A stretch of DNA of 64,000 nt from Polyangia bacterium (lineage in GTDB: Bacteria; Myxococcota_A; Polyangia; Palsa-1104; JAEUJZ01): contig JBGANQ010000041.1 in assembly GCA_044222245.1 (NCBI GenBank), forward strand, positions 5,234 through 69,233, read 5' to 3'. A model generated the notes under the pieces. The model was not told the origin of the DNA. It saw only the letters and a list, made by a program, of their open reading frames with translations, and did not search any database. Positions 40,159 to 58,359 of this stretch are shown piece after piece; the stretch's first letter is position 1; every line of letters starts with the position of its first letter. The position numbers were made by a program, and so were the translations under genes.

Positions 40159-40182
40159 AAGAGCTCGTAGGCGAGCTCTTTA
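40159..40182 (+). terminator. Candidate intrinsic terminator hairpin after the binding-protein gene
   Basis: AAGAGCTCG-TAGG-CGAGCTCTT stem-loop with short T tail. Confidence 0.5.
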
Positions 40183-40487: not shown

Positions 40488-40956
40488 ATGCCAAAGAGGA
40501 AGCATACGGATATGAAATTCGAAAGATCATCCCAGCTCAATTCACAAGCCGTGAGCACCTATCAGCAGCAGGGCTTCCTGATGCTGCCAGAGTACTTTTC
40601 TCAAGACGAGGTCCTGGCTCTCAAGTCGTGCCTGCCGCACATCTTGTCGGCGAAGACCGAGCGGACCATCTTTGAGCCCGACGGGCACACCGTGCGCTCG
40701 GTGTACGCGGTGCATAAGGACTGTGAGCTGGTGGCCCGCCTGTCTCGCCACCCGCTGCTGGTCAACGCCGCCCGCCAGCTGCTCGGCGGCGAGGTGTATC
40801 TGTATCAGAGTAAGCTGAACCTGAAGCCGGCGTTTGCCGGAACCGCCTGGGACTGGCACCAGGACTACACCTACTGGCACAACGAGGACGCGATGCCGGC
40901 CCCGCTGGCGGTCAACATCGCCGTGTTTCTCGACGACGTCAGCGAGTTCAACGGAC
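40488..40956 (+). pseudogene. 5' half of an Fe(II)/2-oxoglutarate dioxygenase (PhyH/EctD family, proline 4-hydroxylase-like), interrupted
   Basis: QGFLML, YQSKLNLK, WHQDY (HxD), FLDDVSEFNG then similarity stops abruptly; continues at 47734. Confidence 0.9.
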
Positions 40957-41049
40957 GGCAAGCTCCTTTACGACAGCTCGCCGGCAAACACCTACACCTT
41001 TGGGCTGGTCACATCTGCTAACTCCAGCGGGAGCCTTGGCCGTGAGCCG

Positions 41050-41075
41050 ACCGGAGGTGTCTACCGGAGGTGTCT
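41050..41075 (+). repeat. Tandem duplication of 13 bp (ACCGGAGGTGTCT x2)
   Basis: Read directly. Confidence 0.85.
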
Positions 41076-41136
41076 TTGCGGGGCGGCTTGCTCCCCGATG
41101 GAAACATCGCAGGGTAGGGGGGGGCTCGCGGCGCGG

Positions 41137-41730
41137 CTATTTTGACTTGTACCCACTTGGAAGCGCTCGCTCAAGACGACTTTGCAGGTTGAGCTCACTA
41201 GCAAGGATAGACTCCAACGCACTCCCTTCGCGATCCGCAGTCCAGGGAAATCCCATCGCTGTGGTGATGCAGATCGGCTGCTGTTCGGCTCCCGCGATCT
41301 CGACCTCAGCCCAGTAGCCTGGGTTTTCAGCTTCGGACTCGGGCTTCCCCTCAGCGGTGGACCGGATGGTCATGGAGAGGCGGTTGGGCTTTACGATCTG
41401 CCCGGCACGATAACGGACCACGATGCCCCTGGGATCGTCGCGACTTATTTCGACTCGCCACTTGGGGCCCCTGAAGTATCTGTGCAGAACCCAGAGGCCC
41501 AGTCCGACTAGAGGCAGAATTTTGCCAAATATGAAAGATACCTGACTTTCTTCATTAGGTCCGCCGGCAGCGAATGGAGTATCACTGAAGATGAGGAACA
41601 AGCAGAGGCACAGCATCCCCGTGGCGAACAGCGACAGCAGAGACGAGACACTAAACGTCCAGAACCCTTGCGTATAACTGACGACGGTTTTTTGCGCGCT
41701 CTTATGAACCTTAAAGCTACTGCTGGGCAT
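41137..41730 (-). CDS. Hypothetical two-TM membrane protein, visibly lower GC than neighbours
   Basis: ORF from MPSSSFK with two hydrophobic segments and a soluble C-terminal domain. Confidence 0.6.
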   Translation of the reverse strand: MPSSSFKVHKSAQKTVVSYTQGFWTFSVSSLLSLFATGMLCLCLFLIFSDTPFAAGGPNEESQVSFIFGKILPLVGLGLWVLHRYFRGPKWRVEISRDDPRGIVVRYRAGQIVKPNRLSMTIRSTAEGKPESEAENPGYWAEVEIAGAEQQPICITTAMGFPWTADREGSALESILASELNLQSRLERALPSGYKSK

Positions 41731-41868
41731 CTTCGCTCCGCTATCACCTGACCGTGATTTTATCACGCCGCAATAAGTCCTGTGGCGACTGCACAACGGG
41801 GCGCTGGCGTGATTGCGCGGTCGTAGGGAGAGCGGGCCGCGAGCGGGCGTGGGCCGGGCGGTGGCAGA

Positions 41869-42789
41869 GTGCGCAACCTGTCAAATTCTGTTAGCCCAGA
41901 TCGCCCGCGACGTGGCATGGTGCGCTCGATGTCGCCCGCCTCGCTCCTTGGCCGCCGCGCCCACCTCCGAATCCTCCGCCTGACCGCGCTCGGCGCCTGC
42001 CTCGCGCTCGACGATGACGCGATCGCCGACGAGGTCCTCCTGCTGCCCATCGCCGAGCTGCCGGCCGGCGCGAAGGTCGGCGACGAGCTCGCGGTGTTCG
42101 TGTACCTCGACTCCGAGCAGCGGCCGATCGCGACCACTCGCAGGCCGCGGCTCGTGCTCGGGGAGGTGGCCTTCCTCAAGGTCACCGCCGTCACGCCGAT
42201 CGGCGCGTTCGTGGACTGGGGCCTTGGCAAGGAGCTGCTCGTGCCGTTCGCCGAGCAGGCCAAGGAGCTGTTCGTCGGCGAGCGCCAGCCCATCGGCCTC
42301 TACCTCGACAGCACTGGCCGGCTCGCCGGGACGATGTTTGTCGGCGCGCTCATCGAGCGCACGCCGCCCGATGACCTCGCGCTCGACGATTGGGTCCAGG
42401 GCGAGGCGTGGCGCAACGACCCCGACATCGGGCTGTTCGTGATCCTCGAGCGCTCGTATGTCGGTCTGATGCCGGCGTCCGAGCCGCACCGCCTCCAGCG
42501 CGGCGAGTCCGCGCGCTTCCGCATCGCGAACATCCTGCCCGACGGCAAGCTCGTGCTATCGCTCCGCCAGCACGCGCACCACGAGCTCGCCGCCGACGCC
42601 GAGCACGTCCTCGCCGTGCTCGGCCGCCCCGGGGCACCGCGCGTCGGCGATCGCTCCGACCCCGACAAGCTGCGCGCGCTGTTTGGCCTCAGCAAGAAGG
42701 CCTTCAAGCGCGCCGTCGGCCGACTACTGAAGGAGCGCGCGGTCGCGCTTGACGATCAGGGCTTCGTGGTCGTCACCAAGGGCGCTTGA
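41869..42789 (+). CDS. CvfB-like S1 RNA-binding domain protein with C-terminal winged helix
   Basis: FVYLDSEQRPIATT, GAFVDWGLGKELLVPFAEQ, FGLSKKAFKRAVGRLLK; true start may be later. Confidence 0.88.
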   Translation: MRNLSNSVSPDRPRRGMVRSMSPASLLGRRAHLRILRLTALGACLALDDDAIADEVLLLPIAELPAGAKVGDELAVFVYLDSEQRPIATTRRPRLVLGEVAFLKVTAVTPIGAFVDWGLGKELLVPFAEQAKELFVGERQPIGLYLDSTGRLAGTMFVGALIERTPPDDLALDDWVQGEAWRNDPDIGLFVILERSYVGLMPASEPHRLQRGESARFRIANILPDGKLVLSLRQHAHHELAADAEHVLAVLGRPGAPRVGDRSDPDKLRALFGLSKKAFKRAVGRLLKERAVALDDQGFVVVTKGA

Positions 42790-43127
42790 GGGGGAAGGCC
42801 AGCCCCAGCTAGCCGCGACCGCGGCGACCGCCGGCGGAGCTTGTCTCTGATAAAGCGACCTTGGGCTCGCCAATTTGCGCGACCTGTGCAGTCGGGTCAT
42901 GTAGTCCGGCCTCGCGGTCCGCTTTCCGCCCGGGCCCGCGCTGTCTTTCGCGGTGACACCTTTGGCGAGCAATCTCCAGCGCTTCGGGATGCTACGGAGC
43001 GCGCGCCGGCCAAAGCGAGCCTGCCTGCTCACTGCCGGTAGAGGCAAACGCTCGAGTCTCCCACGCCCTATGTCCCCCGGTCATGGCAAAATGAACCATA
43101 GAACCACTCTTCGAGGCCTGAATCGCG

Positions 43128-43505
43128 ATGTCTGAATGGCTCGCCCGCCACCTTGCCGGGCTGACCTCGTGTGCCCTCGGGGTAGCGGCGCTAGGCACTT
43201 CTTTGATCTTGCTTCTCTCGGGGCAGCGCGCTTCCTCCCTGCCTCTCCCAGACCATATGACGCTCGCCTCGTGGAGCGAGGCCGTGACGCAAGGCCTGCA
43301 ACAAGTGGGACCCGCTCCCATTGTCCTGTTTCTGCTCAGCTTGATCGCCGCCGTCATCGCCCGCGCCCGCGGCGAAGGGTCGCGGTGGCTGTGGGCGGTT
43401 GGAATCGCCAGCGGGGCCTGCGCCCTGGTGGTCCCGGTGGTCTTGGCCGCCCTCGCCCTGCTCTTTATCGTCGCCGTCATCGTGGCGGTAATCACCGGGG
43501 GCTGA
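43128..43505 (+). CDS. Small hypothetical membrane protein (3-4 TM)
   Basis: 125-aa strongly hydrophobic ORF. Confidence 0.55.
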   Translation: MSEWLARHLAGLTSCALGVAALGTSLILLLSGQRASSLPLPDHMTLASWSEAVTQGLQQVGPAPIVLFLLSLIAAVIARARGEGSRWLWAVGIASGACALVVPVVLAALALLFIVAVIVAVITGG

Positions 43506-43660
43506 TGTTGCAGCGCGTGGAGGATGCTACGGTGCTCCTGCCGGTGTCAGCCAAGACGCAGTTGATGCCCCCGCGGCTGCTGAGGGAGCGCTGCGCGCTG
43601 GAGGTTGTCGCCGGTGTGGGTGCACCTCACGCCGCTGCAGCGCGGGCGGATGAGCGCCGC

Positions 43661-46600
43661 ATGACTACGATGCGGACTCGGCCCCGGTGCGCAGTCTTGC
43701 TGGTCTGCCTGGCCCTGGGCTTTGGACTTGCGCTGGTCGGCGGGTGCCATGGCGGCGTTGTTTCAGCCAATGGACCCCTGACCTGCAGCGGACCGCAGCT
43801 TGCGCCGTGCGCGCGGGCGCTGCAAGCGGCCGGGGAGGCGGCTGATGCCACCGCGCTGCGCGAGCGGGCGGCCAAGTATGCCGCGCTCGCCCGCGAGCAC
43901 GACCAGGGCGATCCGTGGGCGCAGCTGTTTGCCGCCCTGCAGCGCCAGCGCAGCACCCTGCCGAGCGATGGGCCAGCGACCGTGATCGTCGCCGAGCTGG
44001 CCGTCGCGCCCCAGGTCTTGGCGGCGGCGGCTCGGGCCAGGGTGGCGGTCGTGGTCCAGGACCTCAAGGAGCCGGCATCCCTCCCGGCCGCCGAGCTTCT
44101 GACCTGGCTGGCCGCGGCCGCGCGCTTCGATCATGTGCTGTGGGTGCGCGGGCAGGCAGCGTGGCAGCTTTTCCCCCTGGACCCGCTGCAGCCTTTCATG
44201 GCGGGCCTTGCCCCGGTGGTGCGCGATGACGCCGCGCTCACCCATCTGACAGAGACGGTGGCGCTGGCGCAGACGCTGCGCGCGGCATTTTCTGCCGCCA
44301 GCGGCTTTCATTACGTCGAAGCCGCGGCCCTGGCCGATCGCCTCGTCGCGCAGGCGGGCCGCGAGGCGACACCCGATGAGCCGGTGCTGCGGGCCCGCTA
44401 CGGGCTGCAGCTGCTCAGGGCGGCCGGGATTGTCCTATCGCGAGCGGGCGCGGGCGACTCCACCCCGGACCTTACTTTTTCCGCTTCCCCGGCCGACACC
44501 CCCTACGGGGATCTGCTCCGGGTGCGCCTGGCCACCAGCAAGGCCCGCACGGACGAGTGGACGGCGCGCCGCACCAACATCTTGCGCGGGATTGCCGCCG
44601 ACCGTCGCGACGACTTCGCCGATCTCATGGCGCCGGCACCGGCCTGCCGCAGCCAGCGCCTGCTGCCCATGGAGTCGGTGCGCGACCTGGCGTTCAGCCA
44701 GCGCCTGGCAGACACCCTGGCCCCAGAGGGGGCGACTCCGGCGGCGGGCCAGCTCCCGCTGAGACAGTGGCAGCAGCGCTATGACACCCTGGTCGAGCTG
44801 GTGTCCGCCACCGGCAGCGCCTGGTCCTACCTGCCCGCCCTGCTGCGTCAGCGCGGTCCCGCTCCGATTTCGCCTTCTCCCCCAGGCCGCACCCAGGCTC
44901 GCGTGACCGAGCTGGCGCTGGCTCACCTGCACGCCAGTCAGGAGCTCCAGCAGGCGGCCCCCGCTCGGTATCAGGTCCTGTCCCAGTTCGAGCTCCTGCT
45001 GTGCGCCGGCCTGCGCGCCGATCCGCCGCTGTTTCGCGAGATGCTCTTTCTCAGCGACGCGAGCGTCAAGTCCCGTCTGGCACCTCCGGCGAGCCCGGCG
45101 GCGGTCCTGGAAGGCGTGCTGTGGGCGGCCCTGGCCGGCCTCGGCTACCCCGATGCGGCGCGGGCGAGCTATTTCAACGGCCTCCACGCGGTGCTGAGCA
45201 GCCGGCTGGGCGGCGATCTGCAGAGCCAGACCGGGTGGGCGGTGGCGGGCCTGTACGCGCTTGATGAGCTGTACCGACGGCTGACTGGAGCGCCATCCCA
45301 GCTGGCGACAGACACCCACCACCTGGTGCGCGCGCTCGCCGACCCGGGGGTGGCGTATCCGGAGCTCGCCGGGCTCGTGCAGGCCGCGGCGCTATATCTG
45401 GGGCTGGTCCTTGACAACGCCTTGGACGCCGCGCTGGTCGGCAATCCCGCCGGATTCCCCAGCCAGCGGCTTGAAGCCTATCAGCTGCTGCAGCGCGCCC
45501 TGCAGACCCTTGGCACAAGTGATGCGGCGGCGGCCGCGAGCAGCGAGGCCCGCGACCTGGCCGCAGTCGCCGATGGCCTCTTTACTGTCCTTGCCGCCGC
45601 TGTGCACAGTAAGCCCGGCTGGGAGCCCCAGTGCAAAGACGAGGCGGCGGCGCAGTCGCCACAGCTGCGCACCGCGCTCGACAAGCTGCGGGCGCTGCGG
45701 CTGCAGCTTATTGGGCCGGCGATTTCTCCGACCACCGCGACCAGCGGACAGCTGCGCACCCGGCTGCTGCTGCAGATCTTGTCGGATCTTCTGGACTACG
45801 GGGCGCGCGATGGTCAGCCGATTCGCTTCGCGACTGCCAGCGATGCCGCGGAGAGGAACGTGCGCGACGGGCTGCGCACCTGGCCGCTCGGCACCGGCGC
45901 GGCGCTGCTGGGTCAGAGCTACCGCCTGCTGCGCGACTATCTGGCGCAGGCCGCGGAGCTGCGCAAGGTGCCGCTCAGCCCGGCCCAGACGCAGGCGCTG
46001 CTGGCGCAGCTCCAGGAGCTCGTCCGGGCGGCGGCGCGGGCCGGCACGGGCTCACAGCTGGTCGCCGCGCTGTCGCAGCTGGACTTCAGCAAGCTGCGCA
46101 GCGACAACCTGGCGCAGGCCGCCGCCGGGCTGGCGCAGGGCCTGTACTTGCACGAGCAGCCGCAGCAGGCCGGCATCCTGCTCCTGACCGCCGCCCTCCT
46201 CGACAGCGGGGACGCTGCGGCGACGCGGGCAGTGCTCGCCGCAGCAGAGCGGCAGGATCGTCCCCTGGTCGCCATGGTGCGGTTCCTCCTGGACAGCCAG
46301 TCTCACCTTCAGGGCCGCGCGCCCGCTCCCTCTGCCTACGCCGCGGCCCTGCGCAGCGATGCCGAGTCGGTCTGCCAGGAGAGCGGAACCGCGCAGGTGT
46401 TGACGCTGCTGCAGGCGGCCAGCGACTTCAGTCACGGCAAGCGCGGGCGCGCCCGCAGCAGCCTGCGCGCCTGGCTGCAGGACGCCGAAGAGCACGGACT
46501 CAGCGTGCCGCGCGTCACCTACCAGTTTGAGGAGAAGGTTGGCACCCTGACCTTCCAGCTGGGCTACTCGCTGTCTTATGGGCTGGGCGTGCTCAACGCC

Positions 46601-47521
46601 GGCAAGGACTTCAAGCTCGGCCTGGGTGCCAGCACAACCCCGCACTCGGAGAGCAAGCTCACGACCAGCTTCGCCAGCCACGACAACGACAAGGCCAACC
46701 AAGAGGCAACCCGGTATTACGTTTATGGCGCGGCGCTGCTCGCCGTCTATGAGCTGCTTGACGGTCACACTGCGGCGGCCGAGCAAGCTGCGGCGCGGGC
46801 GCTTATTGGCAGCGAGGGGCGCACCCGGCTCGGCCGGCGTCCGCTGCCAGCGGGGAACGTGAACCTGGCACATGATTCCCGCGCCGTGTTCGCGGTGGCG
46901 GCGCAGCTGTTGGCTGAGGCCGGACGGCCGATTCTGGCCGGTCGCCTGTGGGCCAAGGTCTACGGCGGTTTTTTCGATCACGATGATGAGGCGACCGTGC
47001 TGTCGATCCTCAGCCCGCTGCCCACCGGACTGGCTGGCGTGGCCGCTGTGCCGCCGCTGCTGCCGCGCGTGCAGGCGTCGCTGCGTCAGCTTGCCCGCGA
47101 CCTGCCTTGCCGCCGCCGCGGGCAGCCCCCCTTGGCGGCCAAGGTGGTCACCTGCGCTGAGTACCCGCTCGCGCTGGCGCTCTCTCTGGGCGGCGATGGC
47201 GAGCCGCTGCCGGGCTTTCCCACCAGGCCCCAGACCGCGTGTGAAAACTGGCAGGCCCTGGACCGCTTCATGCGGGTGCAGCGCGAGCGGCAAGCTCCGC
47301 GGCCGGCAAGGGCCGCCGCTATCACGGCCGCGGTGTCGGCGCTGCTCGCGGCGCGGGATGAAGTCGGGGCGGCTCTTCTGCTGTTGCCCCTGCCGAGCTG
47401 TGACGCAGAGCTGCTTACCGCTGCGCAGCGCGTCGCTGCCACCGGAGTGCCACCTCCGCTGCAGCAGCAGCTGCTCAGCGAAGTGACAAGCTGCACACCA
47501 CGCTCTACGCCTGCGCAGTAA
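43661..47521 (+). CDS. Large hypothetical lipoprotein (about 1286 aa), mostly alpha-helical
   Basis: Long ORF with natural codon bias; lipobox LVGGC after MTTMRTRPR; no family recognised. Confidence 0.72.
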   Translation: MTTMRTRPRCAVLLVCLALGFGLALVGGCHGGVVSANGPLTCSGPQLAPCARALQAAGEAADATALRERAAKYAALAREHDQGDPWAQLFAALQRQRSTLPSDGPATVIVAELAVAPQVLAAAARARVAVVVQDLKEPASLPAAELLTWLAAAARFDHVLWVRGQAAWQLFPLDPLQPFMAGLAPVVRDDAALTHLTETVALAQTLRAAFSAASGFHYVEAAALADRLVAQAGREATPDEPVLRARYGLQLLRAAGIVLSRAGAGDSTPDLTFSASPADTPYGDLLRVRLATSKARTDEWTARRTNILRGIAADRRDDFADLMAPAPACRSQRLLPMESVRDLAFSQRLADTLAPEGATPAAGQLPLRQWQQRYDTLVELVSATGSAWSYLPALLRQRGPAPISPSPPGRTQARVTELALAHLHASQELQQAAPARYQVLSQFELLLCAGLRADPPLFREMLFLSDASVKSRLAPPASPAAVLEGVLWAALAGLGYPDAARASYFNGLHAVLSSRLGGDLQSQTGWAVAGLYALDELYRRLTGAPSQLATDTHHLVRALADPGVAYPELAGLVQAAALYLGLVLDNALDAALVGNPAGFPSQRLEAYQLLQRALQTLGTSDAAAAASSEARDLAAVADGLFTVLAAAVHSKPGWEPQCKDEAAAQSPQLRTALDKLRALRLQLIGPAISPTTATSGQLRTRLLLQILSDLLDYGARDGQPIRFATASDAAERNVRDGLRTWPLGTGAALLGQSYRLLRDYLAQAAELRKVPLSPAQTQALLAQLQELVRAAARAGTGSQLVAALSQLDFSKLRSDNLAQAAAGLAQGLYLHEQPQQAGILLLTAALLDSGDAAATRAVLAAAERQDRPLVAMVRFLLDSQSHLQGRAPAPSAYAAALRSDAESVCQESGTAQVLTLLQAASDFSHGKRGRARSSLRAWLQDAEEHGLSVPRVTYQFEEKVGTLTFQLGYSLSYGLGVLNAGKDFKLGLGASTTPHSESKLTTSFASHDNDKANQEATRYYVYGAALLAVYELLDGHTAAAEQAAARALIGSEGRTRLGRRPLPAGNVNLAHDSRAVFAVAAQLLAEAGRPILAGRLWAKVYGGFFDHDDEATVLSILSPLPTGLAGVAAVPPLLPRVQASLRQLARDLPCRRRGQPPLAAKVVTCAEYPLALALSLGGDGEPLPGFPTRPQTACENWQALDRFMRVQRERQAPRPARAAAITAAVSALLAARDEVGAALLLLPLPSCDAELLTAAQRVAATGVPPPLQQQLLSEVTSCTPRSTPAQ

Positions 47522-47556
47522 CGCCCAGGGTGGACAGAGCGCGCAAACCCAGAGAC

Positions 47557-47706
47557 TGCGTGGTCGACGTCGCTGTGGAAGAATTCTTGGACCGAGTCAG
47601 CCGCGATGCGCTGATGGGAAAGCTGGCCAGTCGGATCGTGCGCAAGCGGATGCAGGGACTGGCCCGCCGCTACCTGGAGGCCGGCATCATGGCCGATGAT
47701 AGATGA
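47557..47706 (+). pseudogene. Degenerate fragment of a group II intron-type reverse transcriptase
   Basis: Translates CVVDVAVEEFLDRVSRDALMGKLASRIVRKRMQGLARRYLEAGIMADDR*, resembling the RT segment VVDxDLEKFFDRVNHDxLM...IRRYLEAG; not in ORF track. Confidence 0.72.
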
Positions 47707-47733
47707 TAACTGTTGTATTTGACTTTAAGGGAC

Positions 47734-48179
47734 CCCTGTATCTGGTCCCCGGCTCGCAAAAGGACGGCATCCAGGATCACTCCGAGCTCACTGGCCGGCC
47801 GGAAGGATATGAGCAGTCACCCGAGTGGATCTCGAACCTGACGGCGAAGCTCAAGTATGTGGTCGAGCGCGACCGCGTCGCCGAGCTGGTAAAGAGTCAC
47901 GGCCTCACCGCCGCCAAGGGGCCGGCGGGCTCGGTGCTGGTATTTCACAGCAACATCGTCCACGCCTCTCCTCCCAACATTACGCCGCTGGAGCGCTCTA
48001 CTCTGCTCTTTTCCTACAATCACATCAGCAACGCCCCCCCCGAGTCGCTGCGCCGGCGGCCCGACTTCTTGTCGAGCGCCGATACCCATCCGATCCAGGA
48101 GGTAGATGAGGAGCTCGGCCACCTCCTGAGCTGCGCCGTGGCACGCCCGCTTGGCCGGGGGAACCATGAGCACCACTAG
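47734..48179 (+). pseudogene. 3' half of the interrupted Fe(II)/2-oxoglutarate dioxygenase
   Basis: PLYLVPGSQ, GPAGSVLVFHSNIVHAS (distal His), ERSTLLFSYN, RPDFLS; stop overlaps NRPS start. Confidence 0.9.
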
Positions 48180-51100
48180 CCTGCCCCCCGCCGCGTGGAA
48201 CGAGACTGCGGCCGACTTCCCCCACGACCGCTGCGTCCACGAGCTGTTCGCGGACCAGGTCCGCCGCACCCCGGACGCGGTGGCGGTGGTCTATGGCGAT
48301 GCGGCCCTGACCTATGCCGAGCTCGATCGCCGGGCCAACCAGCTGGCGCACCGGCTGCGCGCCAGCGGCGTCGGGCCCGATACGCTGGTCAGCCTGTGCG
48401 TGGAGCGCTCGCTGCACTTGGCGGTGGGCGTGCTGGGAATCTTGAAGGCGGGCGGCGCCTACGTACCCCTGGACCCGGCCTACCCGGCAGAGCGCCTGGC
48501 GCAGCTGCATGGGGACTCGCAGGCGGCGGTGCTGCTGACGCAGCGGGCGCTCCTGGGTCGCCTGCCGCAGCCGGCGGGCGCGCTCTTGCTGCTGGACGAG
48601 CCGACAGCCGACCCGTGGCCGCAGGATGCGCCGGCAGTGGCGATGAGCGCCGACTCTCTGGGCTACGTCATCTACACCTCCGGATCGACCGGTCGTCCCA
48701 AAGGGATCTGTCTGCCCCACCGCGCGCTGGTGAACCTGATCGTCTGGCACGAGCGCACGCTCCTGTGCGGCGTCAACACCCTGCAGTACGCCTCGCTGAG
48801 CTTTGACGCCAGCTTCCACGAGATGTTCGCTGCCTGGTGCTCGGGCGGGACGCTGTTCCTGCTCAGCGAAGAGGTCCGCCACGATCTCGGGGCGCTGGCG
48901 CGCTTCATCCACGCCCACCAGATCGAAAAGGTCATCCTCCCGGTCATCGTCCTGTCGCAGCTCGCCGAGCAGGTGCGCGGTCAGGAGCAGCTGCTCGGCA
49001 GCCTCAAGGAGCTCACCACCACCGGCGAGCAGCTGCAGATTACCGGGCCGATCATCCAGCTCTTCCGCCGGCTTCCCGGCTGCGCGTTTCACAACCACTA
49101 CGGACCTTCCGAGAGCCATGTGGTGACCGCCTACACCCTGCCCGCCGATCCCGACGCCTGGGTGACCCACCCGCCGATCGGGCGGCCGATTGCCAACACC
49201 CGCATCTATCTGCTGGACGAGCAGCGCCGCCCAGTGCCGGTAGGCGCCACGGGCGAGCTGTATATAGGAGGCGTGTGCCTGGCGCGCTGCTACCTCGGTC
49301 AGCCCGAGCTCACCGCCAGCCGCTTTGTCGCCACCGGCGAGCTGCCCGCTGGCGAGACCCGGCTTTACCGCACCGGCGATCTGGCGCGCTACCGGCCCGA
49401 TGGCTGCCTGGAGTATCTAGGCCGCATCGATCACCAGGTCAAGATCCGCGGCTTCCGCATCGAGCTGGGTGAAGTCGAGACGGTGCTCAGCCAGCACCCG
49501 GGGGTGCGCGAGGTTGCGGTGCTGGCGCGCGAGGATGCGCCGGGGGAAAAGCGCCTGGTGGCCTATGTCGTGCCGGACTTCGCCGCCGCCACCTCGGGAG
49601 CCGCGCCGCTGCACGGCGAGCCGCTGCACGGCGAGCCGGTGCGCGCCCTGGGCGCTGACCTCCGCGCCCGGCTGCGCGAGAAGCTGCCCGACTACATGAT
49701 CCCCTCCGCGCTCGTCATGCTGGCGGCGCTGCCGCTGACCCCCAACGGCAAGCTGGATCGCCGCGCGCTGCCGCCGCCCGGCCCCGCCCGCCCCGAGCTG
49801 GCCACCGCCTATCGCGCGCCGCGCACCGCGCTGGAGCGGGAGGTGACGGCGCTGTGGGAGCAGCTCCTGCACCTGGACGGCATCGGGGTCGAGGACAGCT
49901 TCTTCGATCTGGGCGGCAGCTCGATCCACGCGGCGCAGTTCCTGGCCCGGGTGCGCAGCGCCTACGGCATTGAGCTGACCTTTGCGCGCTTCTTCGCCCA
50001 GCCGACGGTGGCGGCGCTCGCCGCGGCGCTGCAAGAGCAGCGGCCGGAAGGGCCCGCCGCGGCGACGATACCCATGGTGCCGCGCGAGGGCGGGCTGGCG
50101 CTCTCGCTGGCTCAGGAGCGGCTATATTATCTGTACCAGCTCGCTCCCGAAAGCCGCGCCTATAACTGTGCTTCCTGCTTTCACCTGCGCGGCACGCTGG
50201 ATGAGCAGGGGCTGGAGCGCAGCCTGCAAGCGCTGGTGGCGCGGCATGAGATCCTGCGCACCCGCTTCAGCCAGCGCGACGGACGGCCGCTGCAGCTTAT
50301 CGATTCACCGCCGCCGCCGCCGCCGCCGTCGCGCACCCTGGCGGTGGTGGATCTGCAGGCGCTGCCCGAAGCCGAGCGCCCGCTGGCCGCCCGCCGGCAG
50401 CTGGAAAAGGAGACGCAGCACCTGTTCAACCTGGAGCAGGGGCCGCTGTTCCGGGCCACGCTGTGGCGCCTCGGACCGGGCGAGCACTTCCTGCTGCTCA
50501 ACTTCCACCACATCATCATCGATGGCTGGTCGATCGAGGTCGCGCTGCGCGAGCTGGCGCTGTATTACAAAGCCTGGGTCACGCACACGCCGCCGGCGCT
50601 CGCCCCGCTTCCCATCCAGTATGCCGACTACGCGGCGTGGCAGCTGCAGCAGGCCGACAGCGCCGCCCAGCGCGAGCTTGTCGGCTGGTGGAAGCAGAAG
50701 CTGCAGGGCGCGGCGCCGCTCCTCCAGCTGCCCACCGATCATCGGCGCCCCGCAGTGCAAAGCTTCCGCGGCGCCACGGTGGCATTTGCCATCGACGCCC
50801 CGCTGACCGCGGCGCTGCGCGAGCTGGCGGCGCGCAGCGGCATGACCCTGTCCATGGTGCTGCTGGCCGCGTACGCGGCGCTCTTGCATCGCTACACCCG
50901 CAGCGAAGACCTGCTCATCGGCATCCCCAGTGCCAGCCGCCATCGCGTCGAGCTGGAAGGAGTGCTGGGATTTTTCATCAACACCCTGCCGCTGCGCATC
51001 GATCTGTCGGGCGGGCCTTCTTTTGCCGAGCTGCTCGGTCGGGTGCGCGCCACCGCGATCGAGGCCTACGAGCGCGACGCAGCCCCGTTTGAGCAGATCG

Positions 51101-54100
51101 TCAAGGAGCTGCGCCCCGAGCGCGATCCCGCCTACAACCCGGTGGTGCAGCTCGGCTTTGCGCCGCAGCCGCCGGCCGAGCGCGCCCTGGCGCTGCCCGG
51201 GCTGCAGGCCGAGCACGTAGAGGTCGATGCCCAGAAGACGGTCTTCGATCTGACCCTTTACCTTTGGGAGGAGCCGACCCGCACCGCCGCCCTCTTTGAG
51301 TACAGCACCGACCTGTTCACGCCTGCAACGATCGCCCGCCTCGCCGAGCAGTATGTCCTGCTGCTGCGTGCCGCGCTAAAGGACGCGCAGCAGCAGGTCG
51401 CGGCCCTGCCGCTGCTGTCCGCTGCAGAGCGCGACAAGATCCTGCAGCAGTGGAACCCGCCCCCCAGCGCCCCGGCGGCCGCGCCGAGCCTGTATGAGCT
51501 GTTTGCGGCGCAGGCGGCGCGCGCGCCCGCGGCGCCGGCGGTGGTGATGGATGCAGTCACGGTGACCTACGGGGAGCTCGACCAGCGGGCGAGCCAGCTG
51601 GCGCAGCTGCTGCAGGCGCTGGAGCTGCCTGCAGAGACGCCGATTGGGGTGTGCCTGGAGCGCTCTGTGGATCTGATCGTGGCGTTTCTGGGCATCCTCA
51701 AGGCTGGCGGGGTGTACACGCCGCTCGACCCCGGCTACCCCCAGAGCCGACTGCACTACATGCTCGCTGACAGCGCCGCGCCCGTGGTCCTCACCTCGGC
51801 CCGCCATGCCGAGCTGCTCGCCGGCGCTGGAGCTCGGGTCCTGTGTCTGGACACGCCGGCCGCGGCGCTTGCCGCGACGGCCGAGCGCCGTCCGCCCCCG
51901 GTGGCGCCAGGTCAGGCCGCCTACCTGATCTATACCTCGGGCTCCTCCGGCCGGCCCAAGGGAGTGGTCATCGAGCACCGCAGCGCGGTCGCCTTTGTCC
52001 GCGCCCAGCAGGCGGTGGTCGGGGTCACCGCAGAGTCACGAGTCCTACACCTGGCCTCGCCGAGCTTCGACGCCTCGGTATGGGAGCTGCTGCTGGCGCT
52101 GACCGCCGGCGCCGCGCTGTTCCCGGTGCCGGTGGCGGCGACGCTCCCCGGGCCCGAGCTGTGTCGGTTCCTGCGCCAGCACCGCATCTCGATCGCCTTC
52201 CTGGCGCCGGCGGCGCTGGCGCAGCTGCCGCGGGAGGAGCTGCCCGAGCTGACCACCCTGCTCACCGGTGGCGAGGCCTGTCCCGCTGCGCAGGTCCAGC
52301 GCTGGGCCCCCGGGCGCCGCTTCATCAACGCCTACGGACCCACCGAGGCCACGGTCTGCGCGACGATGCAGGTGTGCACCCCGGGCCCCGAGGCGCCGGC
52401 CATCGGCGTGCCGCTGACCAACGCGCGCGTGTACGTCCTGGATGCCGCCGGCCAGCTGCTTCCCACCGGCGTTCCCGGAGAGCTCTACCTTGGCGGTGCG
52501 AGCCTCGCCCGCGGCTACCTGAACCAGCCCGAGCTGACGGCGCAGCGGTTTCTCCCCGATCCCTTTGCGGCGCCCGGCGCCCGCATGTACCGGACCGGCG
52601 ACCTGGGGCGGTGGCGCGCCGATGGGAGCCTGGAGTTTTTGGGCCGCCTGGATGATCAGATCAAGCTGCGCGGCTTGCGCATCGAGCTCGGTGAGATCGA
52701 GTCCGTCCTGCGCGAGCAGCCGCTGATCGCGGCGGCGGCGGTGGTCCTGCGCGAGGAGCGGGACGGTGATCGGCGGCTGGTCGCCTACCTGGTCCCGCGC
52801 GCCGGCGCGCCGACCGCCGCCCCGGCGGCAGCCCCCGCCACGCTGAAGGAGCAGCTGGTCGGCGACTGGCTGCGCCTCTATGAAGACGTCTACAAGCGGG
52901 CCGACGCCGCCGGCGACCCGACCTTCAATATCGAAGGCTGGAACAGCAGCTTCACCGGCCAGCCGATCCCGGCGGCGCAGATGAGCGCCTGGGTGGCGAG
53001 CACGGTGGCGCGGCTGCAGGCGCTGGCGCCGCGGCGGGTGCTGGAGCTTGGCAGCGGCAGCGGCCTGCTCTTGTTCAAGGTGGCCCCGAGCTGCGCGCAG
53101 TATCTGGGGACGGATTTCTCGCCGGCCGCGGTGGCGCGCCTTGGGCAGCTGGTGGCGGCGCGCGGGCTGACCCAGGTGACGCTGCAGCAGCGCGAGGCGA
53201 ACCAGCTGGCCGACCTGCCCGAGAAGAGCTTTGACACCATCATCCTGAACTCGGTCGTGCAGTACTTTCCCGGGCTCGCCTACCTGCGCGAGGTGCTGGG
53301 CGGCGCCGTGCGCGCCCTGACCGCGCCGGGGGTGATCTTCATTGGCGATGTGCGCAGCCTGCCGCTGCGCGAGGCGTTTCACGCTGCGGTGCAGCTCTAC
53401 CAGGCGGCGCCGCAGACCGCCGCCGCGGCCCTGCGCGACAAGACCAGCCGCGCTGCCAGCAGTGACCGCGAGCTGCTGCTTGCGCCCGAGTTCTTCACCG
53501 CGCTGGCGTCCGAGCTGGGACCGCAGGTGCATGCCGAGGTCTGGCTCAAGCGCGGCCGCGGCAGCGATGAGATGACGCGCTACCGCTACGATGTGGTGCT
53601 GTTTGTCGGCTGCGCGGCGCCGGCGGTCGAGCCGAGCGCCACGCGCCACTGGGCCGCGGTGGACGCCTCGGTTGCCGGGCTGCAGGCGTGGCTCACGCAG
53701 GCCAGGCCGCAGGTCGCCGAGATCCTGGCGATTCCCAACGCGCGGCTCGCTGGCGACTGGCAGGCGCTGCAGCGGCTGCAGCAGGCGCCCGACTGCAGCT
53801 GCGACGAGCTTGCGGCCGCCCTGGCGCCGGCGGTGGCGGCCGCGGTGGCCCCCGAGGATCTGTGGCAGCTCGGGGAGCAGCTCGGCTACGCCGTGCGCAT
53901 CACCTACTCGGCAACCGGCGGCCCCGCCTGCATGGACGTACTGTTCGAGCGCGCGGCGGCTGCTCCCTACCCGCGCCCGTGGCGACCCGCCCCCCGGCAG
54001 CCGGCCGCCCGCGAGCGCGCGGACGACTATGCCAACGATCCGCTGCGCGCCAAACAGGACCGGGATCTCATCCCGCAGGTGCGCGAGGCCCTCTTGCGCA

Positions 54101-57100
54101 AGCTGCCTGCGTATATGATTCCCGCCGCCTTCGTCGTGCTCGATGAGCTGCCGCTGACCGCCAGCGGCAAGCTGGATCGCAAGCGCCTGCGCGCCCCCGC
54201 CGAGCTCCGCCCCGAGCTCGGGCGCGACTATGTCGCCCCGACGACCGCCTTGCACAGCGAGCTTGTCGCGATCTGGCGCACGGTGCTGGGAGTCGAGCGC
54301 ATCGGAATTCATGATCCGTTCTTCGAGCTGGGCGGTCACTCCCTGCTGCTGCCGCAGGTGCGCGCGGCCATCGCGACCCGGCTGGGTATCCAGGTGCCGG
54401 TCATCAAGCTGCTGCAGTGCGCGACCGTGAGCGCGCTTGCCGCATACCTGCAGGCGAGCGCCGAGCCGGAGGCGCCGGCCGTGCCGCCGCCGCGCCCCGA
54501 GGTCGCCGCGTCCGCCGCCGCGAGCCGCGCGGTGGCCGTGATAGGTCTTGCCGGGCGGTTCCCCCAAGCCGCCGATGTCGAGGAGCTGTGGCAGAACCTG
54601 GCCAGCGGGCGGGAGTGCCTGACCTTCTTTACGCCGGCCGAGCTGGCAGAGCAGGGCATCGAGCCGGAGCTGCTCCGCTCGCCGCGCCTGGTGCCTGCCT
54701 GCGGCGTACTAGAGGAGGCGATGGGCTTTGACGCGGGCTTTTTCGGCTGCGGTCCCAAAGAGGCGCTGTACATGGACCCGCAGCACCGCGCGTTTCTTGA
54801 GTGCGCGTGGGCCGGACTGGAGGATGCGGGGTACACCGCGCCGACCTATGATGGCGCGATCGGCGTGTTTGCTGGCGCCGAGGCCCCGCGCTACTGGCTG
54901 GAGCGGCTCGGCCTGCACGGCGGACCGTGGAACGCCGAGGACTATCAGGCGGTGCACGGCAACCTGCCCGACAACCTCACCACGCGGGTGGCCGACCAGC
55001 TTGGCCTGCGCGGCCCGGCGATCACGGTGGCCACTGCTTGCTCGACCTCGCTGGTCGCCATCCACCTGGCCTGCCAGCAGCTGCTGGCGGCGCAGTGCGA
55101 CCTGGCGCTGGCCGGCGGCGTGGGAGTCCACTCGCCGTTCGCGCCGGGGCACCTGTATCAGGACGGCGGCCTGATGTCGCGCAGCGGTCACTGCCGCCCC
55201 TTTGACGCCGCCGCCGAGGGCATCGTCAGCGGCAGCGGGGTCGCGGTGGTGGTGCTCAAGCGGCTCGAAGATGCGCTGCGCGATGGCGATCACATAAGAG
55301 CGGTGATCCGCGGCTCGGCGATCAACAACGACGGCGGCAACAAGGCCAGCTACCTGGCGCCGAGCGTCGAGGGCCAGCTGGCGGTGCTGCGCAAGGCCTA
55401 CGCTTCGGCGGACGTCGATCCCGCGACCGTGTCGTACATAGAGGCGCACGGCACAGCGACCCGGCTGGGCGATCTGGTCGAGTTTACGGCGCTGCGCCGC
55501 GCCTTCGCGGAGCGCACCGAGCGGCGGCAGTTCTGCGCGCTCGGCTCGGTCAAGAGCAACCTGGGTCACCTGGGTGCCGCGGCAGGTGTGACCGGTCTTA
55601 TCAAGGCGACGCTGGCGCTGGAGCGCGGGCTCATTCCGCCCACCCTTCACTTTACCGCACCGCCGGCCGAGCTCGAGCTGCAGGACAGTCCGTTTTTCGT
55701 CCATGCGCAGCCGCGCCCCTGGCCGGCGGCAGCGCAGCCGCGCCGCGCCGGGGTCAGCGCCTTCGGGGTCGGCGGCACCAACGCCCACGTCGTGCTGGAG
55801 CAAGCGCCGGCGATCCCGGCGGCGGGCCGCGCCCGCGGCGTGCAGCTGCTGCTCTTGTCGGCGCGCACCCCCTGGGCGCTGGACGAGGCGACGCGGCGGC
55901 TCGCCGCGCACCTGCAGCAGCACCCCGAGCAGCCCCTGCCCGATGTCGCCTATACGCTGCAGCGCGGCCGCGCCCACCTGCAGCACCGGCGGGCGGTCAT
56001 CGCCAGCGACGCCGCTGCTGCCAGCGCCCGGCTGAGCGCGGCGGAGCCGACGCTGGTAGCGACCGGCAGCGTGCCGGCGCGGCCGCCCAAGCTGGTGTTC
56101 ATGTTCCCCGGCGGCGGCACGCAGCGGGTGCAGATGGGAAGGGAGCTCTATGAGCAGGAGCCGGTCTACCGGGAGGCGCTGGCGCGCTGCGCGCGGCTGT
56201 TTCAAAACGAGCTTGGCTGCGACCTGCTCGCGCTGCTGTTCCCGCCGCCGGGCGACGAGCCGGCGGCGGCGGCGGCGCTGCTGCGCCCCTCGCTGAACAA
56301 CGCGGCGATCTTCGCCACCGAGTTTGCGCTGACCGAGCTGCTCCAATCCTGGGGGCTGCGGCCGGCTGCGGTGACCGGTCACAGCCTGGGCGAGTACGCG
56401 GCGGCGTGCCTGTCGGGGGTGCTGCGCCTGGAGGACGCGGTGGCCCTGGTCGCCCTGCGCGGGCGCATCTATGACGAGCTGACCGGCGGGGCGACAATGA
56501 GCGTGCTGCTGCCCGAGGCGACCCTGCGCGCGCGGCTGGGCAGCGGGGTCGAGCTCGCGGCAGTCAACGGTCCGGCTTCCTGTGTGGTCGCCGGCGAGCG
56601 CGCCGCCGTGCTGCGGCTGCAGGCGGAGCTCGCTGCGGAGGGGCATGAGGCGCGCCTGCTGGCGATCGACTGCGCGGCGCACTGCTCGAGCGTCGAGCCC
56701 CACCTGCCGCGCCTCACCGCGCGGGCGGCGACCCTGGACCTGCAGGCGCCGCGCATTCCCATCGTGTCCAACCTCACCGGCGGCTACCTGAGCGAGAAGC
56801 AGGCGCGCGACCCAGCGCACTGGGCCGCCCACCTGCGTGGGACGGTGCGCTTTGCCGCCGGACTTGCGACCTTGCTCGCCGACCCGGACGCGGTGTTCCT
56901 GGAGGTCGGGCCCGGCTGGACGCTGAGCACCCTGTGCCGCCGCCATCCCGACGCCGGGGCCGAGCGGGTGGCGGTGGCCAGCCTGGCCAGCGCCGGCTCG
57001 GGCCGCTCGGATCTGGAGGTGCTGCTGTTGGCGCTGGGGCAGCTGCACTGCACAGGGGTGGCGGTGGACTGGCAGCGCTTCTCTGCCACCGAGCAGCGCC

Positions 57101-58359
57101 GCCGGGTGCCGCTGCCCACGTATCCGTTTGAGCGGACTTTATACGACCTGGGAACGCGCGCGGTGCGGACCGGGGCGGCGCTGCCGGCGGTGCCGCCGCT
57201 TGCTCGCGCCGTCGGGACCGCGGTGCTGCGTTCGCTGCCGCCGCTCGCCCCCCGGGATGCGCTGGCGCAGCGGCTGGCCGCGCTGTGGTCCGAGGCGCTC
57301 GGGTTCAGCCCGCGCGATGGCGACAACTTCTTTGATCACGGAGGCAACTCCTTTGTCGCCGTCCAGCTGAGCTCCAAGGTGCGCGATGAGCTGAACATCG
57401 CTCTGCCGCTGCACACCCTGGTCCAGCACCCGACCTTCGCGGCGCTGCTGGAGTACGTGCGCGCGCTGCCCAGCGCCGCCGGCGGGCCGGCGGGCCGCCG
57501 CGAGCTGCCCGCGCCCGAGCCCGCGCCTGCTGCCGCCTCCCTGCTGGTCGAGTTCAACCGCGGCGCCGCCACGCAGCTGCCGCTGTTTCTCATCCAGCCG
57601 ATCGGCGGCACCGTGTTTACCTACGCCGCCCTGGCCCGCGCCCTGCATCCCAGCCTGCCGGTCTACGGGGTGCGCGCCTCGGGCATGGAGGCCGGTGAGG
57701 AGGTGCTCACCGCGCTGCCGCAGATCGTCGCCCGCTACCTGGAGAGCCTGCGCGCCGTGCAGCCGCGCGGTCCCTACCGCCTGGGTGGTCACTCCGCTGG
57801 CGGCATCATCGCCTTTGCCATCGCCGCGCAGCTCCTGGCGGAGGGTGAGCAGGTGAGCTGGCTGCTGCTGCTCGATAGCGCCTCGCTGCCCCAGATGCGG
57901 CGCACCGCGGCCCTGCCGCTCGCGCAGCTGCTCGCCGAGCTCGATCGCGGCGGCAGCGCGCCGAGCGAGGGTCAGCTGAGCCTGCGCGCGGCGCTGCAGG
58001 CCGACACGCCATTCCGGGCGATCGCGCTCGGGACGCTGCAGGCCCTGGCCGGGGCGCAGCTGGGACCCTTGCCGGTCCGCCTGACCTATGTGCTGGCCCG
58101 CGATGAGCCCGGCCCGCTCGACGCGCAGCGGGCGGCGTTCTGGCTGGCCATGACCGAGCAGAGCTTCGCGCTGCAGCGGGTCGCCGGCACACACTTCACC
58201 ATGATGGAGCCGCAGCAGCTGACCCCCATCGTCGAGCTCTGTCACGAGCAGCTGCTCGGCCGCCGCGCCGCCGACCCGGCCAGCGACCTGGGTGAGCCGC
58301 GGCGGGTCGCTAGCTCGCAGCAAGGCCGCGCCGTCCCGGGCCCACCGGACTTAGGATGA
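48166..58359 (+). CDS. Hybrid NRPS-type I PKS: A-T-C-A-MT-T-KS-AT-ACP-TE
   Basis: A cores YTSGSTGRPKG and YTSGSSGRPKG; T GGSS and GGHS; C HHIIIDG; MT VLELGSGSG and LNSVVQYFP; KS TACSTSL, EAHGT, NLGHL; AT GHSLG; ACP GGNS; TE GHSAG. Confidence 0.96.
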   Translation: MSTTSLPPAAWNETAADFPHDRCVHELFADQVRRTPDAVAVVYGDAALTYAELDRRANQLAHRLRASGVGPDTLVSLCVERSLHLAVGVLGILKAGGAYVPLDPAYPAERLAQLHGDSQAAVLLTQRALLGRLPQPAGALLLLDEPTADPWPQDAPAVAMSADSLGYVIYTSGSTGRPKGICLPHRALVNLIVWHERTLLCGVNTLQYASLSFDASFHEMFAAWCSGGTLFLLSEEVRHDLGALARFIHAHQIEKVILPVIVLSQLAEQVRGQEQLLGSLKELTTTGEQLQITGPIIQLFRRLPGCAFHNHYGPSESHVVTAYTLPADPDAWVTHPPIGRPIANTRIYLLDEQRRPVPVGATGELYIGGVCLARCYLGQPELTASRFVATGELPAGETRLYRTGDLARYRPDGCLEYLGRIDHQVKIRGFRIELGEVETVLSQHPGVREVAVLAREDAPGEKRLVAYVVPDFAAATSGAAPLHGEPLHGEPVRALGADLRARLREKLPDYMIPSALVMLAALPLTPNGKLDRRALPPPGPARPELATAYRAPRTALEREVTALWEQLLHLDGIGVEDSFFDLGGSSIHAAQFLARVRSAYGIELTFARFFAQPTVAALAAALQEQRPEGPAAATIPMVPREGGLALSLAQERLYYLYQLAPESRAYNCASCFHLRGTLDEQGLERSLQALVARHEILRTRFSQRDGRPLQLIDSPPPPPPPSRTLAVVDLQALPEAERPLAARRQLEKETQHLFNLEQGPLFRATLWRLGPGEHFLLLNFHHIIIDGWSIEVALRELALYYKAWVTHTPPALAPLPIQYADYAAWQLQQADSAAQRELVGWWKQKLQGAAPLLQLPTDHRRPAVQSFRGATVAFAIDAPLTAALRELAARSGMTLSMVLLAAYAALLHRYTRSEDLLIGIPSASRHRVELEGVLGFFINTLPLRIDLSGGPSFAELLGRVRATAIEAYERDAAPFEQIVKELRPERDPAYNPVVQLGFAPQPPAERALALPGLQAEHVEVDAQKTVFDLTLYLWEEPTRTAALFEYSTDLFTPATIARLAEQYVLLLRAALKDAQQQVAALPLLSAAERDKILQQWNPPPSAPAAAPSLYELFAAQAARAPAAPAVVMDAVTVTYGELDQRASQLAQLLQALELPAETPIGVCLERSVDLIVAFLGILKAGGVYTPLDPGYPQSRLHYMLADSAAPVVLTSARHAELLAGAGARVLCLDTPAAALAATAERRPPPVAPGQAAYLIYTSGSSGRPKGVVIEHRSAVAFVRAQQAVVGVTAESRVLHLASPSFDASVWELLLALTAGAALFPVPVAATLPGPELCRFLRQHRISIAFLAPAALAQLPREELPELTTLLTGGEACPAAQVQRWAPGRRFINAYGPTEATVCATMQVCTPGPEAPAIGVPLTNARVYVLDAAGQLLPTGVPGELYLGGASLARGYLNQPELTAQRFLPDPFAAPGARMYRTGDLGRWRADGSLEFLGRLDDQIKLRGLRIELGEIESVLREQPLIAAAAVVLREERDGDRRLVAYLVPRAGAPTAAPAAAPATLKEQLVGDWLRLYEDVYKRADAAGDPTFNIEGWNSSFTGQPIPAAQMSAWVASTVARLQALAPRRVLELGSGSGLLLFKVAPSCAQYLGTDFSPAAVARLGQLVAARGLTQVTLQQREANQLADLPEKSFDTIILNSVVQYFPGLAYLREVLGGAVRALTAPGVIFIGDVRSLPLREAFHAAVQLYQAAPQTAAAALRDKTSRAASSDRELLLAPEFFTALASELGPQVHAEVWLKRGRGSDEMTRYRYDVVLFVGCAAPAVEPSATRHWAAVDASVAGLQAWLTQARPQVAEILAIPNARLAGDWQALQRLQQAPDCSCDELAAALAPAVAAAVAPEDLWQLGEQLGYAVRITYSATGGPACMDVLFERAAAAPYPRPWRPAPRQPAARERADDYANDPLRAKQDRDLIPQVREALLRKLPAYMIPAAFVVLDELPLTASGKLDRKRLRAPAELRPELGRDYVAPTTALHSELVAIWRTVLGVERIGIHDPFFELGGHSLLLPQVRAAIATRLGIQVPVIKLLQCATVSALAAYLQASAEPEAPAVPPPRPEVAASAAASRAVAVIGLAGRFPQAADVEELWQNLASGRECLTFFTPAELAEQGIEPELLRSPRLVPACGVLEEAMGFDAGFFGCGPKEALYMDPQHRAFLECAWAGLEDAGYTAPTYDGAIGVFAGAEAPRYWLERLGLHGGPWNAEDYQAVHGNLPDNLTTRVADQLGLRGPAITVATACSTSLVAIHLACQQLLAAQCDLALAGGVGVHSPFAPGHLYQDGGLMSRSGHCRPFDAAAEGIVSGSGVAVVVLKRLEDALRDGDHIRAVIRGSAINNDGGNKASYLAPSVEGQLAVLRKAYASADVDPATVSYIEAHGTATRLGDLVEFTALRRAFAERTERRQFCALGSVKSNLGHLGAAAGVTGLIKATLALERGLIPPTLHFTAPPAELELQDSPFFVHAQPRPWPAAAQPRRAGVSAFGVGGTNAHVVLEQAPAIPAAGRARGVQLLLLSARTPWALDEATRRLAAHLQQHPEQPLPDVAYTLQRGRAHLQHRRAVIASDAAAASARLSAAEPTLVATGSVPARPPKLVFMFPGGGTQRVQMGRELYEQEPVYREALARCARLFQNELGCDLLALLFPPPGDEPAAAAALLRPSLNNAAIFATEFALTELLQSWGLRPAAVTGHSLGEYAAACLSGVLRLEDAVALVALRGRIYDELTGGATMSVLLPEATLRARLGSGVELAAVNGPASCVVAGERAAVLRLQAELAAEGHEARLLAIDCAAHCSSVEPHLPRLTARAATLDLQAPRIPIVSNLTGGYLSEKQARDPAHWAAHLRGTVRFAAGLATLLADPDAVFLEVGPGWTLSTLCRRHPDAGAERVAVASLASAGSGRSDLEVLLLALGQLHCTGVAVDWQRFSATEQRRRVPLPTYPFERTLYDLGTRAVRTGAALPAVPPLARAVGTAVLRSLPPLAPRDALAQRLAALWSEALGFSPRDGDNFFDHGGNSFVAVQLSSKVRDELNIALPLHTLVQHPTFAALLEYVRALPSAAGGPAGRRELPAPEPAPAAASLLVEFNRGAATQLPLFLIQPIGGTVFTYAALARALHPSLPVYGVRASGMEAGEEVLTALPQIVARYLESLRAVQPRGPYRLGGHSAGGIIAFAIAAQLLAEGEQVSWLLLLDSASLPQMRRTAALPLAQLLAELDRGGSAPSEGQLSLRAALQADTPFRAIALGTLQALAGAQLGPLPVRLTYVLARDEPGPLDAQRAAFWLAMTEQSFALQRVAGTHFTMMEPQQLTPIVELCHEQLLGRRAADPASDLGEPRRVASSQQGRAVPGPPDLG

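Follow-up and report, generated by a model that had tools for sequence, protein, structure and literature searches.

A 64,000-nt stretch of DNA from a Polyangia bacterium (contig JBGANQ010000041.1 of assembly GCA_044222245.1), here called the window, contains a gene for a predicted amino-acid hydroxylase that is interrupted by an insert of 6,777 bp. No recombinase is recognizable in the insert. Intact alleles, from which the insert is exactly absent, occur in nature alongside the split ones, and both forms are present in one wastewater sample. We give a probability of about one-half to the reading that the insert arrived by a single, fairly old illegitimate insertion and is now a presence/absence polymorphism shuffled by homologous recombination. 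The source is a metagenome-assembled genome (MAG) of 9.59 Mb in 181 contigs with a completeness of 83%, in which the insert occurs once.

The interrupted hydroxylase gene

The insert is bracketed by GGAC on both sides. Joining positions 40488-40956 (469 nt) to 47734-48179 (446 nt) yields 915 nt that form a single 304-aa open reading frame (ORF) reading ...FLDDVSEFNGPLYLVPGSQ... across the join. Read directly from the window, the left junction (40956/40957) consists of ...GAGTTCAACGGAC followed by GGCAAGCTCC..., and the right junction (47733/47734) of ...GACTTTAAGGGAC followed by CCCTGTATCTGG.... The gene downstream encodes a nonribosomal peptide synthetase-polyketide synthase (NRPS-PKS). The features of the split locus, with the sequences of the four junctions, are the following.

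40488..40956, plus strand: 5' half of the hydroxylase gene, PhyH/EctD/GriE-type (profile match; 169-aa gene calls in other assemblies)
40953..40956: left copy of GGAC (sequence read)
40957..47733: insert of 6,777 bp, with the right copy of GGAC counted in
47730..47733: right copy of GGAC (sequence read)
47734..48179, plus strand: 3' half of the hydroxylase gene
48166..58359, plus strand: NRPS-PKS gene, about 3,400 aa
attL junction sequence: TTCAACGGAC, then GGCAAG
attR junction sequence: TTTAAGGGAC, then CCCTG; variant CTGTAAGGGAC
Joined-site sequence: TTCAACGGACCCCTG
Hypothetical circle-junction sequence: TTTAAGGGACGGCAAG; TTTAAG-GGAC-GGCAAG

A 4-bp match at both junctions has a chance probability of about 1 in 256. 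The GC content of the insert is 0.688, compared with 0.70 for the window. The true start of the 5' half is likely the ATG at 40512; an exact look-up of the 177-aa left ORF returned no record, and the recorded form has 169 aa, beginning at Met9. The frame of the 5' half enters the insert for 21 codons and stops at 41019-41021. The 3' half gains an in-frame ATG at 47703, inside the insert, which gives a 158-aa ORF. According to the gene calls, the stop of the 3' half (48177-48179) overlaps the NRPS start region at ATG 48166, and the NRPS-PKS gene itself is uninterrupted in split and intact alleles alike.

The Pfam PhyH profile aligns across the join (residues 25-244, E = 5.8e-33). The intact allele matches the solved structures PDB 7dzz (9.8e-61), 5nch, the leucine hydroxylase GriE (1e-53), and EctD (4.5e-45). 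Alignment to 7dzz, 5nch, and the EctD structures 3emr and 4mhr assigns the HxD motif (WHQDY) to the left half; the distal His (NIVHAS) and the Arg (PLERS) fall in the right. The PhyH domain, the HxD...H triad, and the Arg that binds 2-oxoglutarate (2OG) are all present, and the joined product is, from its sequence, an Fe(II)/2OG amino-acid hydroxylase of the PhyH/EctD/GriE type. As with GriE, the hydroxylase adjoins an NRPS, and the WHQDY...H...R arrangement is conserved. Where 'PGSH' is usual, the window protein has 'PGSQ'. The same residues are found in the intact alleles, so this is a native feature of the enzyme and not a sign of decay.

An earlier sequence-only reading of the window had described a dioxygenase split precisely between two GGAC copies, with a 304-aa product upon joining, the HxD ligands in the left half, the distal His and Arg in the right half, and a right-half stop overlapping the NRPS ATG. 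The direct read, the PhyH match across the join, the alignment to solved homologs, and the gene calls bear out each part of this description.

Split and intact alleles in wastewater assemblies

The samples that hold alleles of this locus are from activated sludge or wastewater. In addition to the window, 23 independent assemblies (from JGI, ENA, and Logan) cross one or both of the split junctions, and three contigs (L034, L058, and L066) have the complete insert in place. The split arrangement is not an assembly artifact. A 181-contig MAG that is 83% complete could have harbored an assembly or binning chimera, an option that the sequence-only reading had kept. The chance of this is negligible, because the same left and right junctions recur across different pipelines and samples, and a chimera would not resume at the same base of the same codon.

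The intact allele encodes a 296-aa protein (P0131 in the protein clusters), both halves of which are identical to the halves of split alleles. It is found on six contigs from six wastewater assemblies, such that 6 of 29 assemblies carry the intact form. These contigs are 99.8% identical to the window on the left (4.3 kb) and 99.4-99.6% identical on the right. Their empty site reads GAGTTCAACGGACCCCTGTATCTGG, which is exactly the predicted join, and the joined sequence AACGGACCCCTG, which had been proposed as a search target, was found in other assemblies and also in the one sample shared by both forms. In natural intact alleles, GGAC stands exactly once at the site, as a 4-bp duplication or overlap predicts. 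In the shared sample, assembly ERZ965056 (run ERR2607423) has an intact contig and a contig that runs over the left junction (window 40892-43482). In the SRR146102xx series, an intact allele (SRR14610239) and split alleles (SRR14610229/245/249) have the same right-flank haplotype and differ there at 0-1 positions over up to 1.7 kb.

In the sister species, which is 85-87% identical at the nucleotide level in both flanks, only the intact gene is found, and the empty site is at the same position (AACGGGCCCCTT). Four more distant members of the family have an intact orthologue of 270-296 aa in the order PBP-PhyH-NRPS. Judged by these relatives, the intact gene in this order is ancestral, and the locus comparison that had been suggested finds the insert not to be fixed. 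A scan of JGI metagenome contigs with the 22-mer of the empty site gave a single match, L040 (72% over 109 nt). This contig was rejected as an allele of the split gene, since it is a distant PhyH homolog that shares only the EFNGPLY motif. A separate observation concerns a sister-lineage contig, L033 (ENA ERZ650282, NODE_59710, coverage 2.4), in which a break interrupts this hydroxylase gene 18 nt upstream of the insert site. The break is followed by an IS1595-type transposase gene (Zn_ribbon_IS1595, 1e-8) and then by a GlnE-like fragment. L033 is either an independent insertion sequence (IS) in the same gene or a low-coverage chimera.

The split alleles carry at least two insert haplotypes about 3% apart, whose right ends also differ. 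In L037-L039, 119 nt stand in place of positions 41054-41844 (791 nt), a segment that comprises a 197-aa ORF and the greater part of a motif of about 150 nt; part of the insert is, by this comparison, decaying. The first 97 nt of the insert are kept almost unchanged in all alleles, with 1 variable site, compared with 3-7% elsewhere in non-coding insert DNA. Synonymous divergence between the haplotypes is 0.05 in the cargo genes and 0.03-0.04 in the flanking genes. The cargo is thus at least as divergent as the flanks, which indicates that the insert diverged along with them, and the distance between the two insert haplotypes places the insertion before the strains of the species diversified. 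On these sequence comparisons, the insertion is old, yet it is not fixed.

Recombination at the locus is pervasive. Contigs are mosaic, and four gametes are found for pairs of sites separated by about 100 nt. The insert-end haplotype and site 47825, for example, show all four combinations over a distance of about 110 nt. The flanks shared by intact and split alleles are therefore explicable by allelic exchange without excision.

Contents of the insert and searches for mobility machinery

The layout of the insert was derived from base-composition periodicity and from gene calls in other assemblies. Its left part, about 900 nt, is low in GC and mostly non-coding and holds a minus-strand ORF. The features are as follows.

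40991..41155, plus strand: motif of about 150 nt (sequence search of the genome)
41137..41727, minus strand: 196-197-aa ORF, low GC, no family match; the sole insert gene on the opposite strand
41917..42789, plus strand: CvfB-like S1 RNA-binding protein, 290 aa (S1_2 5.8e-21, CvfB_WH 1.6e-14)
43128..43505, plus strand: 125-aa ORF, no family match (called as a gene in other assemblies)
43664..47521, plus strand: predicted lipoprotein, about 1,285 aa, no family match (MTTMRTRP...LVGGC lipobox)
47530..47706, plus strand: 58-aa relic of a group II intron reverse transcriptase (RT)/maturase (TIGR04416, E = 2.3e-7, positions 120-171 of 353; PADLOC RT 1.8e-4)

The lipoprotein gene is found only in the genome of the window and in one congener (G001; 81% aa identity). 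In this congener, the CvfB-like and lipoprotein genes are on different contigs, in ordinary and unrelated chromosomal contexts, and the homology ends at the gene borders. With the cargo unlinked and the homology limited to genes, the insert does not behave as a mobile unit, and it was not found as a unit at any other site or in any other genome. No donor locus emerged, as the tested neighbors of the G001 cargo genes have no clear counterpart in the genome of the window. The closest named relatives of the CvfB-like gene are in Kofleriaceae MAGs, which identifies the host as a myxobacterium. Other than the RT relic, no match to PHROGs or PADLOC points to a phage or defense origin of the cargo.

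A remnant of a CvfB pseudogene, 90% identical to the insert copy and with an internal deletion, was observed on contig C151, 2.5 kb from an IS21-type istA/istB pair (C151:219-2711 and 5195-5641). Because the C151 copy is a remnant, the sole intact CvfB-like gene of the genome lies in the insert. The intergenic motif of about 150 nt has three copies in the genome that are about 73% identical (window 40991-41155, C111:43760-43907, and C24:29325-29461), and it ends in TATTTTGACTTGT. It has no Rfam match, and its predicted fold has a single compensatory pair. In insert haplotype B, the motif is cut off after 41053. It may represent a leader, a small RNA, or a repeat element.

The ORFs of the insert have no recombinase or transposase match in Pfam, NCBIfam, PHROGs, or PADLOC. 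The earlier description of the insert as recombinase-less stands in this respect; what it had missed is the RT relic, which sits between the stop of the lipoprotein gene and the right junction. There is also no recombinase match on the contig that contains the window (C28). The proposed search of the genome for serine and tyrosine recombinases gave about 60 tyrosine-recombinase matches and at least one clear large serine recombinase (C89), none of which is linked to the locus. Ku is also encoded in the genome.

The ends of the insert were compared in several ways. No terminal inverted repeats were found; the end-to-end alignment is at the shuffle median, and an inverted octamer matching at 7 of 8 positions, 12 nt from each end, is not significant. 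The junctions share GGAC (4 bp) only, and the arms are similar at 10 of 13 positions on one side. Dyad symmetry is 11/20 for a hypothetical attP (P ~0.02) and 4/20 for attB. The circle junction, for which a search had also been suggested, is absent from the genome, from all fetched loci, from viral contigs (IMG/VR), and, as a called ORF, from the protein collection. A search of the region for tRNA genes and Rfam families gave nothing relevant, with no Rfam intron match at E <= 1 over 38000-49000.

Several types of mobile element were tried and rejected. A DDE transposon or IS would account for GGAC as a target-site duplication, but there are no terminal inverted repeats, no transposase, and no further copies. 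An IS200/IS605-type peel-and-paste element was ruled out, as the Y1 transposase (PF01797) is absent from this 83% complete genome and no convincing subterminal hairpins were seen by eye. A group II intron was ruled out because there is only the 58-aa RT relic, no Rfam intron match, and no GUGYG boundary possible in the register set by GGAC. The RT has no second copy in the genome. The idea that the relic is circularly permuted over the hypothetical circle junction was also rejected, since by eye the left end does not continue the RT frame.

The 9-mer GTATTTGAC is present at 40470-40478, 18 nt upstream of the hydroxylase ORF, and again on the same strand at 47715-47723, 7 nt from the right end of the insert. 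The upstream copy is conserved in the sister species, and the 9.6-Mb genome has 13 copies. The 9-mer includes a TTGAC core that is similar to a -35 element. It could be a chance match, or it could be a promoter or operator element that now stands ahead of the right half and the NRPS. A consensus scan of the region found no promoter, and terminator-like sites are at chance level.

Origin of the split allele and comparison with known systems

In the explanation that we favor, a linear piece of accessory myxobacterial DNA, about 6.77 kb long, would have been captured at a break in the hydroxylase gene. The duplication of GGAC would result from a break with a 4-nt stagger that was filled in and ligated, and end-joining would have been available because the genome encodes Ku. 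The insertion would have occurred after the split from the sister species and before the strains of the species diversified. The sequence-only reading had offered a recent microhomology-mediated insertion that silences the gene. A microhomology-type insertion is still the best reading, but two haplotypes about 3% apart do not fit a recent event. The disrupted enzyme would be a hydroxylase of free amino acids that feeds the downstream NRPS-PKS, so the hydroxylated building block should be missing in carriers of the split gene. Read-through may still bring about transcription of the NRPS-PKS, since all genes of the insert but one point the same way. The interrupted allele would never have become fixed; both alleles would segregate in a wastewater population with a high level of recombination, where homologous recombination in the flanks would carry either state from strain to strain.

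Several observations weigh against this explanation. Across 23 split contigs, the two halves together have 10 synonymous and 5 non-synonymous variable sites and no stop or frameshift (binomial P 0.0006-0.012, with 0.76-0.65 as the neutral non-synonymous fraction). The PBP gene (12:5) is equally constrained, and the cargo genes (16:12, 8:8, and 27:24) are less so. The halves thus look selectively constrained within split alleles; more relaxation would be expected if the gene, interrupted in about 80% of sampled genomes, were dead. Insert haplotypes A and B, which differ by an indel just upstream, each have an in-frame ATG 10 codons ahead of the right junction (MITVVFDFKG and MRPVVFDCKG). Furthermore, the intact alleles are nearly identical and form one haplotype; they differ from each other at 1-4 positions in 3.6 kb and have essentially a single private SNP. 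This haplotype has 9-12 differences from the split allele of the window in 3.6 kb, compared with 17-24 between split alleles, and it looks more like a recent derivative of a split allele than like an old ancestral lineage. The rooted tree of the concatenated flanks is an unresolved three-way split that cannot alone prove the intact form to be derived from the split one. The flank haplotypes of metagenome contigs may mix co-occurring strains, which weakens the flank arguments on both sides and is itself a point against excision.

The same observations are central to the alternative in which the insert is an excisable gene-intervening element that has no recombinase of its own. A recombinase of the host or of another element would act in trans to cut out the 6.8 kb precisely, so that part of the cells, or cells under certain conditions, would regain the hydroxylase gene and the PhyH-NRPS operon. 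This would amount to a DNA-level switch, possibly linked to cell differentiation in myxobacteria. The enzyme that would fit best is a large serine recombinase, as it needs only a 2-bp crossover, and the genome offers at least one (C89) in addition to the roughly 60 tyrosine-recombinase matches. The exact joined sequence exists in nature with flank identities of 99.4-99.8%; both forms occur in ERR2607423 and, with a near-identical right flank, in the SRR146102xx series; and a single intact haplotype is nested among diverse split alleles. The purifying selection on halves free of stops and frameshifts, the near-invariant first 97 nt of the insert, and the weak attP dyad symmetry (11/20) point the same way. 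Opposed to these are the lack of a recombinase or recombination directionality factor in the insert and of any recombinase on the contig, the mere 4 bp common to the junctions, an attB without dyad symmetry, and an attP signal at P ~0.02. Searches of the genome, the fetched loci, the viral contigs, and the called ORFs gave no circle junction, intact forms have one flank background only despite the diversity of split alleles, and the insert is absent as a unit from other sites and genomes. Ordinary allelic exchange can account for the shared flanks, and all known gene-intervening elements encode their own recombinase (PMC4191935, PMC5595907). The switch that the sequence-only reading proposed has gained real support from the joined alleles, their co-occurrence with split ones, and the constraint on the halves; it is without a mechanistic anchor. 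The searches gave no circle junction, no clear att-like sites, and no linked recombinase, and the intact alleles form one haplotype. We regard excision in trans as possible and rather unlikely. The fuller claim, that a recombinase-free element is excised exactly by an enzyme encoded elsewhere and, in some members of the population, toggles a natural product or its state of hydroxylation, is put forward tentatively, and we doubt it slightly more.

Two further alternatives are much less probable. The intact allele could be a revertant that arose by one spontaneous GGAC-GGAC deletion, through slippage or through microhomology-mediated end joining after a break in the insert, and was then selected without any dedicated system. 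This would suit a single young haplotype with almost no private mutations that stands next to the split allele of the window. Only the exact deletion restores function, so selection would pick that product, and Ku is present. A 6.8-kb deletion between 4-bp repeats is expected to be extremely rare, and reversion leaves the constraint on the halves of diverse split alleles unexplained; we find it improbable. That constraint would be explained if the 169-aa and 158-aa polypeptides assembled into a working two-piece hydroxylase, as both halves are open and both insert haplotypes keep the in-frame ATG 10 codons before the junction. Such an assembly is more improbable still, given that the break runs through one jelly-roll fold, with the HxD ligands on one side of it and the distal His and Arg on the other, and that a direct read shows no convincing ribosome-binding site at a proper distance. 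We know of no natural split enzyme in the PhyH/EctD/GriE-type family.

If excision in trans does occur, such switches, so far known from spore-formers and cyanobacteria, would for the first time be found in another group of bacteria, on a biosynthetic cluster, and in a form that operates fully in trans. Active excision as the source of the intact allele would extend developmental-type gene reconstitution to myxobacteria and to secondary metabolism. If the insertion only segregates, the locus is a clean natural case of within-species on/off variation in an NRPS-PKS tailoring enzyme, in abundant uncultured Myxococcota of activated sludge, and strains would differ in making a hydroxylated product, a non-hydroxylated product, or none.

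The closest known systems are the elements that interrupt genes in developing bacteria. These include skin in sigK of B. subtilis, SPbeta in spsM, gin in gerE of B. cereus, and the nifD, fdxN, and hupL elements of Anabaena, which have their own recombinase, often a directionality factor, and defined junction repeats (PMC4191935, PMC5595907). SPbeta uses SprA/SprB (PMC4191935), and the junction repeat of gin is 9 bp (PMC5595907). As in these systems, the insert interrupts an ORF that its exact removal restores, the intact and interrupted forms both exist, and the host is a bacterium with a developmental lifestyle. Unlike them, the insert has no recombinase and only a 4-bp repeat, and it is known from assemblies, with both forms in one sample. 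Because it lacks their defining feature, a self-encoded recombinase, we do not class the locus with the gene-intervening elements.

Att-flanked CIME-type elements and Xer-dependent IMEX elements are moved in trans. They have att or dif sites of 10-30 bp and autonomous relatives in the same genomes. The insert resembles them in that it contains no integrase, so any mobility must come from an enzyme encoded elsewhere. It differs from them in that no recognizable att or dif sites or partner element were found.

The remaining comparison is with polymorphisms produced by end-joining capture. The insert departs from these in that the halves of the interrupted gene are under purifying selection and a perfectly restored allele exists on a near-identical background, which adds to the points against our preferred explanation. 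It agrees with them in having neither terminal inverted repeats nor a transposase, in its very short duplication, in being single-copy, in its cargo of ordinary chromosomal or accessory genes, and in the presence of Ku in the host.

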